Below are positions 1-5,386 of a stretch of DNA of 5,386 nt, piece after piece. The stretch comes from Escherichia phage phiX174: the sequence record EF380029.1. One strand, written 5' to 3'. Position 1 is the stretch's first letter. Each line of letters opens with the position of its first letter. The position numbers were made by a program, and so were the translations under genes. A model generated the notes under the pieces. It saw only the letters and a list, made by a program, of their open reading frames with translations, ran no database searches and was not told the origin of the DNA.

Positions 1-51
1 GAGTTTTATCGCTTCCATGACGCAGAAGTTAACACTTTCGGATATTTCTGA
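1..51 (+). CDS. B: Internal scaffolding protein B, C-terminal segment; continues from 5075..5386 across the junction, stop TGA 49-51
   Basis: Reading GAG TTT TAT CGC TTC CAT GAC GCA GAA GTT AAC ACT TTC GGA TAT TTC TGA gives [16 protein letters not shown], the known B C-terminus; the stop overlaps the K start (TGATG, 49-53). Confidence 0.9.
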
Positions 52-136
52 TGAGTCGAAAAATTATCTTGATAAAGCAGGAATTACTACTGCTTGTTTA
101 CGAATTAAATCGAAGTGGACTGCTGGCGGAAAATGA
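1..136 (+). CDS. A: Replication initiation protein A, C-terminal segment; the ORF enters from 3981..5386 across the circular junction (codon 5385-5386+1) and stops at TGA 134-136
   Basis: Frame continuous with the open frame running from ATG 3981 to the window end; translation matches the phiX174 A C-terminus (...[31 protein letters not shown]); stop overlaps the C start as ATGA (133-136). Confidence 0.9.
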
Positions 137-221
137 GAAAATTCGACCTATCCTTGCGCAGCTCGAGAAGCTCTTACTTTGCGACCTTTCGCCATCAACT
201 AACGATTCTGTCAAAAACTGA
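51..221 (+). CDS. K: Protein K (small accessory protein, 56 aa), overlapping the end of A and the start of C
   Basis: ATG at 51, stop TGA 219-221; hand translation [56 protein letters not shown] matches phiX174 K. Missing from the ORF track, probably because it is below the length cutoff. Confidence 0.85.
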
Positions 222-369
222 CGCGTTGGATGAGGAGAAGTGGCTTAATATGCTTGGCACGTTCGTCAAGGACTGGTTTAGATATGAGTCACATTTTGTT
301 CATGGTAGAGATTCTCTTGTTGACATTTTAAAAGAGCGTGGATTATTATCTGAGTCCGATGTTGTTTAA
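133..369 (+). CDS. C: Protein C (DNA maturation/packaging switch), 78 aa in this copy; truncated relative to the 86-aa reference by an in-frame TAA at 367-369
   Basis: ATG at 133 inside the track ORF 115..369 (which starts at an upstream GTG); translation [78 protein letters not shown] matches phiX174 C up to residue 76. Confidence 0.85.
320..349 (+). promoter_or_regulatory. Promoter for the D-E-J-F-G-H transcript, inside gene C: -35 TTGACA (320-325), 18-nt spacer, -10 TATTAT (344-349)
   Basis: Consensus -35 hexamer and a near-consensus -10 at appropriate spacing, at the position of the known phiX174 D promoter (transcript start near 358). Confidence 0.6.
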
Positions 370-389
370 CCATTAATAGGTAAGAAATC

Positions 390-848
390 ATGAGTCAAGT
401 TATTGAACAATCCGTACGTTTCCAGACTGCTTTGGCCTCTATTAAGCTCATTCAGGTTTCTGCCGTTTTGGATTTAACCGAAGATGATTTCGATTTTCTG
501 ACGAGTAACAAAGTTTGGATTGCTACTGACCGCTCTCGTGCTCGTCGCTGCGTTGAGGCTTGCGTTTATGGTACGCTGGACTTTGTGGGATACCCTCGCT
601 TTCCTGCTCCTGTTGAGTTTATTGCTGCCGTCATTGCTTATTATGTTCATCCCGTCAACATTCAAACGGCCTGTCTCATCATGGAAGGCGCTGAATTTAC
701 GGAAAACATTATTAATGGCGTCGAGCGTCCGGTTAAAGCCGCTGAATTGTTCGCGTTTACCTTGCGTGTACGCGCAGGAAACATTGACGTTCTTACTGAT
801 GCAGAAGAAAACGTGCGTCAAAAATTACGTGCAGAAGGAGTGATGTAA
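390..848 (+). CDS. D: External scaffolding protein D (152 aa)
   Basis: Track ORF 390..848; translation MSQVIEQSVRFQTALASIKLIQVSAVLDL...RAEGVM matches phiX174 D apart from a few substitutions (T5I, A23V, T132I versus my recollection); stop TAA 846-848 overlaps the J start (TAATG). Confidence 0.95.
   Translation: MSQVIEQSVRFQTALASIKLIQVSAVLDLTEDDFDFLTSNKVWIATDRSRARRCVEACVYGTLDFVGYPRFPAPVEFIAAVIAYYVHPVNIQTACLIMEGAEFTENIINGVERPVKAAELFAFTLRVRAGNIDVLTDAEENVRQKLRAEGVM
568..843 (+). CDS. E: Lysis protein E (91 aa, MraY inhibitor), fully embedded in D in the +1 frame
   Basis: ATG at 568 (internal Met of the TTG-initiated track ORF 520..843) preceded by GAGG at 555-558; translation MVRWTLWDTLAFLLLLSLLLPSLLIMFIPSTFKRPVSSWKALNLRKTLLMASSVRLKPLNCSRLPCVYAQETLTFLLMQKKTCVKNYVQKE matches phiX174 E with two C-terminal substitutions. 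Confidence 0.9.
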   Translation: MVRWTLWDTLAFLLLLSLLLPSLLIMFIPSTFKRPVSSWKALNLRKTLLMASSVRLKPLNCSRLPCVYAQETLTFLLMQKKTCVKNYVQKE

Positions 849-2930: not shown

Positions 2931-3917
2931 ATGTTTGGTGCTATTGCTGGCGGTATTGCTTCTGCTCTTGCTGGTGGCGCCATGTCTAAATTGTTTGGAG
3001 GTGGTCAAAAAGCCGCCTCCGGTGGTATTCAAGGTGATGTGCTTGCTACCGATAGCAATACTGTAGGCATGGGTGATGCTGGTATTAAATCTGCTATTCA
3101 AGGCTCTAATGTTCCTAACTATGATGAGGTCGCCCCTAATTTTGTTTCTGGTGCTATGGCTAAAGCTGGTAAAGGACATCTTGAAGGTACGTTGCAGGCT
3201 GGCACTTCTGCCGTTTCTGATAAGTTGCTTGATTTGGTTGGACTTGGTGGCAAGTCTGCCGCTGATAAAGGAAAGGATACTCGTGATTATCTTGCTGCTG
3301 CATTTCCTGAGCTTAATGCTTGGGAGCGTGCTGGTGCTAATGCTTCCTCTGCTGGTATGGTTGACGCCGGATTTGAGAATCAAAAAGAGCTTACTAAAAT
3401 GCAACTGGACAATCAGAAAGAGATTGCCGAGATGCAAAATGAGACTCAAAAAGAGATTGCTGGCATTCAGTCGGTGACTTCACGCCAGAATACGAAAGAC
3501 CAGGTATATGCACAAAATGAGATGCTTGCTTATCAACAGAAGGAGTCTACTGCTCGTGTTGCGTCTATTATGGAAAACACCAATCTTTCCAAGCAACAGC
3601 AGGTTTCCGAGATTATGCGCCAAATGCTTACTCAAGCTCAAACGGCTGGTCAGTATTTTACCAATGACCAAATTAAAGAAATGACTCGCAAGGTTAGTGC
3701 TGAGGTTGACTTAGTTCATCAGCAAACGCAGAATCAGCGGTATGGCTCTTCTCATATTGGCGCTACTGCAAAGGATATTTCTAATGTCGTCACTGATGCT
3801 GCTTCTGGTGTGGTTGATATTTTTCATGGTATTGATAAAGCTGTTGCCGATACTTGGAACAATTTCTGGAAAGACGGTAAAGCTGATGGTATTGGCTCTA
3901 ATTTGTCTAGGAAATAA
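2931..3917 (+). CDS. H: Minor spike / DNA pilot protein H (328 aa) with glycine-rich N-terminal hydrophobic segment and C-terminal coiled coil
   Basis: Track ORF 2931..3917; GAGG at 2921-2924; translation [32 protein letters not shown]... matches phiX174 H with about 7 substitutions; stop TAA 3915-3917. Confidence 0.95.
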
Positions 3918-3980: not shown

Positions 3981-5386
3981 ATGGTTCGTTCTTATTATCC
4001 TTCTGAATGTCACGCTGATTATTTTTACTTTGAGCGTATCGAGGCTCTTAAACCTGCTATTGAGGCTTGTGGCATTTCTACTCTTTCTCAATCCCCAATG
4101 CTTGGCTTCCATAAGCAGATGGATAACCGCATCAAGCTCTTGGAAGAGATTCTGTCTTTTCGTATGCAGGGTGTTGAGTTCGATAATGGTGATATGTATG
4201 TTGACGGCCATAAGGCTGCTTCTGACGTTCGTGATGAGTTTGTATCTGTTACTGAGAAGTTAATGGATGAATTGGCACAATGCTACAATGTGCTCCCCCA
4301 ACTTGATATTAATAACACTATAGACCACTGCCCCGAAGGGGACGAAAAATGGTTTTTAGAGAACGAGAAGACGGTTACGCAGTTTTGCCGCAAGCTGGCT
4401 GCTGAACGCCCTCTTAAGGATATTCGCGATGAGTATAATTACCCCAAAAAGAAAGGTATTAAGGATGAGTGTTCAAGATTGCTGGAGGCTTCCACTATGA
4501 AATCGCGTAGAGGTTTTACTATTCAGCGTTTGATGAATGCAATGCGACAGGCTCATGCTGATGGTTGGTTTATCGTTTTTGATACTCTTACGTTGGCTGA
4601 CGACCGATTAGAGGCGTTTTATGATAATCCCAATGCTTTGCGTGATTATTTTCGTGATATTGGTCGTATGGTTCTTGCTGCCGAGGGTCGCAAGGTTAAT
4701 GATTCACACGCCGACTGCTATCAGTATTTTTGTGTGCCTGAGTATGGTACAGCTAATGGTCGTCTTCATTTCCATGCGGTGCACTTTATGCGGACACTTC
4801 CTACAGGTAGCGTTGACCCTAATTTTGGTCGTCGGGTACGTAATCGCCGCCAGTTAAATAGCTTGCAAAATATGTGGCCTTATGGTTACAGTATGCCCAT
4901 CGCAGTTCGCTATACGCAGGACGCTTTTTCACGTTCTGGTTGGTTGTGGCCTGTTGATGCTAAAGGTGAGCCGCTTAAAGCTACCAGTTATATGGCTGTT
5001 GGTTTCTATGTGGCTAAATACGTTAACAAAAAGTCAGATATGGACCTTGCTGCTAAAGGTCTAGGAGCTAAAGAATGGAACAACTCACTAAAAACCAAGC
5101 TGTCGTTACTTCCCAAGAAGCTGTTCAGAATCAGAATGAGTCGCAACTTCGGGATGAAAATGCTCACAATGACAAATCTGTCCACGGAGTGCTTAATCCA
5201 ACTTACCAAGCTGGGTTACGACGCGACGCCGTTCAACCAGATATTGAAGCAGAACGCAAAAAGAGAGATGAGATTGAGGCTGGGAAAAGTTACTGTAGCC
5301 GACGTTTTGGCGGCGCAACCTGTGACGACAAATCTGCTCAAATTTATGCGCGCTTCGATAAAAATGATTGGCGTATCCAACCTGCA
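3981..5386 (+). CDS. A: Replication initiation protein A (rolling-circle nickase), N-terminal and central segment; continues across the junction to 1..136
   Basis: ATG 3981 with GGAGG at 3969-3973; MVRSYYPSECHADYF... matches phiX174 A. No complete ORF is listed in this frame (0 mod 3) from 3981 to the window end, consistent with an open frame that only terminates after wrapping. Contains the + origin at 4299-4328. Confidence 0.9.
   Translation, partial: MVRSYYPSECHADYFYFERIEALKPAIEACGISTLSQSPMLGFHKQMDNRIKLLEEILSFRMQGVEFDNGDMYVDGHKAASDVRDEFVSVTEKLMDELAQCYNVLPQLDINNTIDHCPEGDEKWFLENEKTVTQFCRKLAAERPLKDIRDEYNYPKKKGIKDECSRLLEASTMKSRRGFTIQRLMNAMRQAHADGWFIVFDTLTLADDRLEAFYDNPNALRDYFRDIGRMVLAAEGRKVNDSHADCYQYFCVPEYGTANGRLHFHAVHFMRTLPTGSVDPNFGRRVRNRRQLNSLQNMWPYGYSMPIAVRYTQDAFSRSGWLWPVDAKGEPLKATSYMAVGFYVAKYVNKKSDMDLAAKGLGAKEWNNSLKTKLSLLPKKLFRIRMSRNFGMKMLTMTNLSTECLIQLTKLGYDATPFNQILKQNAKREMRLRLGKVTVADVLAAQPVTTNLLKFMRASIKMIGVSNL
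4299..4328 (+). other. Viral (+) strand origin of rolling-circle replication; protein A nick site between G4305 and A4306
   Basis: Exact 30-mer CAACTTGATATTAATAACACTATAGACCAC, identical to the phiX174 origin core as I recall it, inside gene A; followed by a small CCCC-GAA-GGGG hairpin at 4331-4341. Confidence 0.85.
4497..5386 (+). CDS. A*: A* protein: in-frame internal translation start within gene A (continues to 1..136)
   Basis: ATG 4497-4499 in the A frame, preceded by GGAGG at 4484-4488 at about 8 nt spacing; this is the established position of the A* start in phiX174. Confidence 0.75.
   Translation, partial: MKSRRGFTIQRLMNAMRQAHADGWFIVFDTLTLADDRLEAFYDNPNALRDYFRDIGRMVLAAEGRKVNDSHADCYQYFCVPEYGTANGRLHFHAVHFMRTLPTGSVDPNFGRRVRNRRQLNSLQNMWPYGYSMPIAVRYTQDAFSRSGWLWPVDAKGEPLKATSYMAVGFYVAKYVNKKSDMDLAAKGLGAKEWNNSLKTKLSLLPKKLFRIRMSRNFGMKMLTMTNLSTECLIQLTKLGYDATPFNQILKQNAKREMRLRLGKVTVADVLAAQPVTTNLLKFMRASIKMIGVSNL
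4863..4891 (+). promoter_or_regulatory. Candidate gene B promoter inside gene A: TTGCAA (4863-4868), 17-nt spacer, TACAGT (4886-4891)
   Basis: Sigma-70-like hexamers with canonical spacing about 185 nt upstream of the B start, in the region where the phiX174 B promoter is reported; assigned by eye only. Confidence 0.3.
5075..5386 (+). CDS. B: Internal scaffolding protein B, N-terminal segment, embedded in gene A in a different frame; continues to 1..51
   Basis: ATG 5075 with AGGAG at 5063-5067; translation MEQLTKNQAVVTSQEAVQNQNESQLRDENAHNDKSVHGVLNPTYQAGLRRDAVQPDIEAERKKRDEIEAGKSYCSRRFGGATCDDKSAQIYARFDKNDWRIQPA... matches phiX174 B (A11V and P23S versus my recollection). Confidence 0.9.
   Translation, partial: MEQLTKNQAVVTSQEAVQNQNESQLRDENAHNDKSVHGVLNPTYQAGLRRDAVQPDIEAERKKRDEIEAGKSYCSRRFGGATCDDKSAQIYARFDKNDWRIQPA

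Follow-up and report, generated by a model that had tools for sequence, protein, structure and literature searches.

Genes E and B of phage phiX174 are embedded in other genes, so that each base of the D/E and A/B overlaps is read in two frames. Are the changes carried by the phiX174 genome EF380029.1 in these overlaps distributed as though the host proteins D and A were held more tightly than the embedded proteins E and B? The first-pass annotation of this genome answered that they are. It reported that four of five overlap changes spare the host frame, and took this to fit tighter constraint on D and A than on B and on the dispensable C-terminal part of E.

The window is the whole of EF380029.1 (5386 nt). 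Numbered in the usual way for phiX174, it has the layout of a full genome of this type, and its + strand encodes all of A, A*, B, K, C, D, E, J, F, G, and H. The two overlaps are made up of the following features.

390..848, + strand: gene D, external scaffolding protein, host frame of the D/E pair; an intact ORF of 152 amino acids whose coordinates are identical in the NC_001422 annotation
568..843, + strand: gene E, lysis protein, nested in D (NC_001422 annotation)
3981..5386, + strand: gene A, first part, host frame of the A/B pair; by annotation it runs over the origin of the circular map to 136
1..136, + strand: gene A, last part, which holds the end of B (to 51) and the A/K overlap and has no differences from NC_001422
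5075..5386, + strand: gene B, internal scaffolding protein, first part; its annotated end is at 51

Both pairs are read out of phase from the same strand, and all four ORFs are intact in EF380029.1. From the computed frame offsets, E lies in the +1 frame relative to D, with D codon position 3 falling on E codon position 2, and B lies in the +2 frame relative to A, with A codon position 3 falling on B codon position 1. In the ORF listing, the E frame is open upstream of 568 from a TTG; the annotated start is the ATG at 568.

Base-for-base alignment of EF380029.1 with the Sanger reference NC_001422 gave 63 differences and no indels. Five differences, read directly from this alignment, are located in the overlaps.

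784, C>T, + strand: D T132I (ACT>ATT), E L73L (CTG>TTG); the sole host-missense overlap change
800, C>T, + strand: D D137D (GAC>GAT), E T78M (ACG>ATG)
833, A where the Sanger reference has G, + strand: D A148A (GCG>GCA), E R89Q (CGG>CAG)
5106, C>T, + strand: A L376L (CTA>TTA), B A11V (GCT>GTT)
5141, C>T, + strand: A S387S (AGC>AGT), B P23S (CCG>TCG)

The D/E, A/B, A/K, and K/C overlaps of EF380029.1 contain no further differences from NC_001422. The differences named in the first-pass annotation at these five positions, with their codon and amino-acid effects, are all correct against the same alignment.

Differences from a reference are not necessarily substitutions in the lineage under study, and the whole pattern could be an artefact in which the apparent changes are Sanger errors or private states. 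This is true of 833. The A at this position is present in AF176034 (the Bull/Wichman laboratory ancestor), in AP100 (EF380009, the ancestor of the experiment of Silander et al.), in 14 of 14 wild relatives, and in the phiX copy in IMG/VR, and the backbone of the 2026 mutational scan reads GTGCAGAAGG there; G is found only in NC_001422/J02482. Position 833 is a peculiarity of the Sanger reference, not a substitution in the EF380029.1 lineage, and since the G is private to that record, any phiX174 genome compared with it will show a spurious E R89Q. Four other Sanger-specific states relative to AF176034 exist, at 1650, 2811, 4518, and 4784. At 784, 800, 5106, and 5141, on the other hand, the Sanger record, AF176034, and AP100 all have C and EF380029.1 has T, which refutes the artefact for four of the five sites; its probability as an account of the overlap changes is negligible. 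EF380029.1 therefore carries four real overlap changes, all C>T, three of them silent in the host frame. The example of 833 teaches that differences from the Sanger reference should be polarised against the true ancestor before they are called substitutions.

In the phage collection searched, the closest public records to EF380029.1 are EF380021, EF380028, and EF380030, each 99.4% identical, which come from the study of Silander, Tenaillon & Chao (2007, PLoS Biol 5:e94, PMC1845161). In that study, each transfer of the phiX174 lines included treatment with 250 mM hydroxylamine, a mutT strain served as plating host, and bottlenecks ranged from 3 to 250 plaques; C>T made up 89% of the substitutions (PMC1845161). 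All 11 of the AP100 markers relative to the Sanger record were found in EF380029.1, as were 22 of the 24 changes of 100C90. Among the 52 post-AP100 changes of EF380029.1, 31 are common to 250A55 and likewise 31 to 250C55. In its ancestor markers, including a stop in gene C at 367, and in its C>T share, EF380029.1 resembles the Silander lines (EF380009-EF380032). These shared sequence states place it as a descendant of population 100c and a sister of 250A55 and 250C55, and since its accession number falls between theirs, it is almost certainly isolate 250B55. On the + strand, C>T accounts for 45 of the 52 changes from AP100 (87%; a total slightly inflated if, as is probable, it includes founder states at 3339, 1428, and 3189) and for 48 of the 60 differences from AF176034. 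This spectrum matches hydroxylamine treatment of virions as in Silander et al. (2007), and the C>T bias of the mutagen sets the null for any silent-versus-missense count in EF380029.1.

Translation of all gene frames, including A over the origin, revealed a premature stop only in C, where C>T at 367 changes CAA to TAA (C Q79*; gene C, 133-369) and the last 8 residues of the protein are lost. AP100 and all Silander lines share the stop (C is annotated 133..369 there), which AF176034 and all the wild genomes lack. Near 367, EF380029.1 also has C>T at 346, 362 (C A77V), and 373; the change at 362 is recurrent, in four independent lineage groups. G>A at 3339 occurs in 10 of 10 independent laboratory lineage groups, A>G at 1428 in 8, and A>G at 3189 in 6. 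These three are probably polymorphisms of the AP100 founder or sequencing differences, not parallel evolution. At 3120-3121 (gene H codon 64), adjacent C>T and C>A convert CCT (Pro) to TAT (Tyr); the change was made in two steps, with 3121 already in AP100 and 3120 acquired later.

Within the lineage, the changes at 784 and 5141 date from the 100c stage, and those at 800 and 5106 are subsequent. The 784T state is also found in 100C90, 250A55, and 250C55, has a separate origin in 3A90, and occurs in none of 15 wild genomes. The 5141T state is common to 100C90, 250A55, and 250C55, has a separate origin in 10B90, and is natural in ID22. Within the 100c lineage, 800T is private to EF380029.1; it arose separately in 3A90 and is natural in ID22 and NC11. 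The 5106T state is private to EF380029.1 among 14 laboratory genomes and absent from the wild genomes examined. The presence of both 784T and 800T in 3A90 and EF380029.1 raised the question of cross-contamination, which was set aside: the two genomes have just six changes in common, three of which occur in at least five independent lineages. Contamination between lines was also argued against by Silander et al. themselves (PMC1845161).

The split of the four changes has to be read against what frame geometry and the mutagen would produce in any case. We enumerated all possible C>T changes in the ancestor for each overlap and classed them by their effect in both frames. In D/E, 23 would be silent in D and missense in E, 21 missense in D and silent in E, 13 missense in both, 1 silent in both, and 5 nonsense. 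The corresponding numbers in A/B are 26 silent in A and missense in B, 29 missense in A and silent in B, 10 missense in both, 0 silent in both, and 18 nonsense. Host-silent changes thus make up 24 of the 58 non-nonsense C>T changes in D/E and 26 of the 65 in A/B, a null share of 0.40-0.41. One rival explanation is chance plus codon geometry, in which a 3:1 split appears with no difference in constraint. Under this null, at least three host-silent changes of four have P = 0.18, and at least four of five P = 0.087. Since about 40% of the changes would be host-silent from geometry and C>T bias alone, neither count is significant. Likewise, the embedded proteins carry three amino-acid changes in the overlaps of EF380029.1 and the host proteins one (P = 0.18; n = 4). 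The statement that four of five changes spare the host frame holds against NC_001422, but with 833 set aside as a reference quirk it becomes three of four, which is within chance. More generally, it is the mutational process that defines the null, and a C>T mutagen gives 40% host-silent overlap changes from geometry.

A wholly neutral version of the chance explanation fits poorly. In the single-gene regions of EF380029.1, C>T is found at 28 of the 267 possible synonymous sites and at 12 of the 583 possible missense sites, a missense/synonymous rate ratio of about 0.20. We scaled overlap models to the synonymous C>T rate (28 hits in 267 sites). The log-likelihood was -8.02 with both frames neutral, -3.50 with the embedded frame neutral and the host frame at omega 0.2, and -3.84 with both frames at omega 0.2. 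The neutral model is far worse than the others and is rejected; its expectation is about 5 host-missense changes (1 observed) and 2 double-missense changes (0 observed). The gap between the asymmetric and symmetric constraint models is only 0.34 log-likelihood units at n = 4, too small to tell them apart. The overlap changes of EF380029.1 are compatible with tighter constraint on D and A, and too few to demonstrate it.

The sister laboratory lines enlarge the sample under the same mutagen. Comparison of 13 Silander genomes and EF380029.1 with AP100, counting distinct C>T sites, gave the following fractions of sites hit.

Plain synonymous C sites: 116 of 267 (43%)
Plain missense C sites: 90 of 583 (15%)
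Nonsense C sites in single-gene regions: 0 of 76 (0%)
Overlap sites silent in the host and missense in the embedded frame: 18 of 49 (37%)
Overlap sites missense in the host and silent in the embedded frame: 9 of 50 (18%)
Overlap sites missense in both frames: 2 of 23 (9%)

By distinct sites in these lines, no difference was seen between the silent-host overlap class and plain synonymous sites (p = 0.43) or between the missense-host class and plain missense sites (p = 0.68); the two overlap classes differ from each other (Fisher p = 0.044). The absence of hits at all 76 nonsense sites also speaks against chance without selection. When independent events are counted over 10 lineage groups, the silent-host class has 0.449 events per site and the missense-host class 0.320, a ratio of 1.40 that is not significant (p = 0.33) and leaves room for the chance explanation. 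The asymmetry is weaker by events because host-missense sites recur, with four hits at 5185 and two at each of 39, 784, 5095, and 5311. In lines shaped by a mutagen and by drift, it amounts to no more than a weak trend.

The same lines bear on a different explanation, in which E T78M and B P23S or A11V were positively selected during plaque passage, for example through lysis timing or assembly. E T78M arose independently in 3A90 and EF380029.1 and B P23S in 10B90 and the 100c line, and their natural occurrence in ID22 (and, for T78M, in NC11) is what such selection might leave. Recurrence in at least two lineages, however, was seen at 8% of silent-host/missense-embedded sites compared with 12% of plain synonymous C sites, silent-host events occur at 0.79 times the synonymous rate, and the change at 5106 is private to EF380029.1. 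Since recurrence at silent-host sites is no higher than at synonymous sites, there is no sign of selection for E T78M or B P23S; neutrality under a strong mutagen predicts this level of recurrence. Positive selection is a very improbable source of these changes.

Some further sites in the laboratory lines deserve mention. C>T at 5185 (A T402M, silent in B) occurs in four independent lineage groups and is unchanged in EF380029.1, and residue 402 of A is variable in wild phage too; either a mutational hotspot or a benefit of this A change within the overlap may explain the recurrence. In the K/C overlap (51-221/133-369) of the sister lines, C>T changes that are missense in K and silent in C occur at 5 of 10 possible sites, and those silent in K and missense in C at 0 of 8. 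A K nonsense change, Q37*, is carried by 10A90. EF380029.1 itself has no changes in the K/C overlap. These counts are consistent with K/C being a third overlap with one-sided constraint, in line with K being non-essential. In 10D90, G>A at 575 gives E R3H and is silent in D; E R3H is an 'Epos' change, of the kind that removes the need for host SlyD.

The extension to phiX174-like genomes proposed by the first-pass annotation was carried out on 15 phiX-clade genomes, natural or ancestral (phiX Anc, S13, NC1, NC7, NC11, NC16, NC51, ID1, ID22, ID34, ID45, WA4, WA10, WA11, and PJNS001), which contain 703 variable sites with every ORF intact. Fitch counts on a neighbour-joining tree of these genomes put 34 events on 17 sites, a ratio of about two, and since this excess is probably due to recombination, the tests were built on variable sites instead. 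Null expectations were weighted by the spectrum of substitutions at four-fold sites in single-coding regions. Among the variable sites in D/E, 17 are silent in D and missense in E, 4 missense in D and silent in E, 3 silent in both, and 0 missense in both; in A/B, 23 are silent in A and missense in B, 8 missense in A and silent in B, 0 silent in both, and 3 missense in both. Host-silent sites number 20 of 24 in D/E, where the null share is 0.34 (p = 1e-6), and 23 of 34 in A/B, where it is 0.29 (p = 3e-6). Silent-host/missense-embedded sites outnumber the reverse class by 17:4 in D/E (p = 0.004) and 23:8 in A/B (p = 0.003). The overlap sites of wild phage thus lean host-silent, in the direction described by the first-pass annotation, and this directly observed asymmetry rejects symmetry between the frames. 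Taken with the neutral model's poor fit, it makes chance and geometry an unlikely explanation, in spite of the non-significant counts in EF380029.1.

The positions of the wild changes are also informative. Missense changes in E fall at residues 2, 3, 7, 9, 36-60, and 74-88, and none falls in residues 10-35, the membrane-spanning core (P = 0.003; 15 genomes). The lytic activity of E maps to the membrane-spanning region, according to Buckley & Hayashi 1986 as cited in a review (PMC8227390). The notion of a dispensable C-terminal part of E fits the data, with T78 in the variable tail and wild missense changes avoiding 10-35. In B, 18 of the 22 variable residues in wild phage lie within 9-43. E T78M, B A11V, and B P23S of EF380029.1 all fall inside stretches that vary in wild phage. 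Out-of-frame overlaps were left out of the silent/missense count of wild phage in Wichman & Brown 2010; the within-clade D/E and A/B counts fill that gap, a small addition and not a new principle.

A scan of IMG/VR for phiX-clade genomes found one phiX copy; the others are G4-like or alpha3-like and were used solely for protein identity across clades. Between phiX and G4-like phages, identity is 85-89% in the overlap part of D and 57-84% in E, and 72-78% in the overlap part of A and 56-60% in B. Between phiX and alpha3-like phages, D is 83-87% identical and E is alignable over its first 67-72 residues only, whereas A (overlap part, 38%) and B (31-38%) are equally diverged. The A/B asymmetry is therefore not universal. 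Within D itself, the part overlapping E (568-848) is 83-89% identical across clades, compared with 64-81% for the N-terminal part (390-567). The segment 451-769 in D/E has 89-90% DNA identity to the alpha3-like phages ID32 and ID62, with no megablast match elsewhere in those genomes, and the N-terminal 67 residues of E in ID32 and ID62 are 87-90% identical to those of phiX. This likeness suggests either a D/E exchange between clades or unusually strong conservation.

We consider that the four changes are best explained by a mutagenised line in which purifying selection acts more strongly on D and A than on E and B. Hydroxylamine, applied at every transfer, deaminates cytosines on the packaged + strand and yields C>T, and the line passed bottlenecks of 100 and then 250 plaques. 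Since almost no overlap change is silent in both frames, a surviving C>T is missense in at least one protein. Purifying selection would remove most changes that alter D or A, and would tolerate most of those in the first third of B and in E outside its membrane-spanning part. Under such selection, survivors are expected to lean host-silent and embedded-missense. This explanation is likely correct; the four real changes fit it and are too few to serve as proof. The identity of the sites, the provenance of the line, its mutation spectrum, the frame geometry, and the asymmetry in wild phage are shown directly. That differential purifying selection, rather than chance, lies behind these particular four changes is what we infer. 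The broader claim of the first-pass annotation, that D and A are more constrained than E and B, holds in general from the wild counts, the identities to G4-like phages, and a mutational scan, but the changes of EF380029.1 cannot carry that inference.

In the mutational scan, a complete mutagenesis of phiX174 in which all substitutions were measured (bioRxiv 10.64898/2026.07.25.740675), the share of detrimental missense changes is 89.4% for D, 89.1% for F, 64.4% for A, 64.3% for C, 31.9% for B, 26.3% for E, and 0% for K, percentages that rest on mutations affecting a single ORF only. About 90% of E mutations are excluded from them because D is also changed by these mutations. The ranking of tolerance by direct measurement agrees with the ranking of constraint obtained here, D > E and A > B. 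phiX174 is the textbook genome for the discovery of overlapping genes. Unequal constraint on the overlapping frames of phiX174 and G4 was already the subject of Miyata & Yasunaga 1978 and of Fiddes & Godson 1979, as cited in PMC8227390. It has thus been known since the 1970s and is not new, and the constraint difference, long described and now measured by deep mutational scanning, has little discovery value here.

The known system closest to these overlaps is the asymmetric or segregated evolution of overlapping genes, a term from Pavesi 2019/2021 (review PMC8227390). The likeness is that in wild D/E and A/B purifying selection holds one protein, and amino-acid changes in its partner fall on that protein's synonymous sites; the difference is that EF380029.1 offers four events only, produced by a chemical mutagen under drift. 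In 23 of 23 overlaps of known genealogy, the faster-evolving frame is the de novo frame (PMC8227390). Genealogies from codon usage (Pavesi 1997 and 2006, reviewed in PMC8227390) make E and K de novo, and have the C-terminal, overlapping stretch of A added de novo over an older B. E, as the de novo frame in the literature and the faster frame here, agrees with the rule. B is the faster frame here although the published genealogy makes the C-terminal part of A de novo. Since B is the older frame in that genealogy, "host versus embedded" describes the geometry of A/B and not its history. Should that genealogy be correct, the phiX and G4 clades would depart in A/B from the rule of a more variable de novo frame, an idea that we regard as possible but rather doubtful. 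If true, it would mean that a newly overprinted enzyme tail (A) became more constrained than the scaffolding protein B beneath it.
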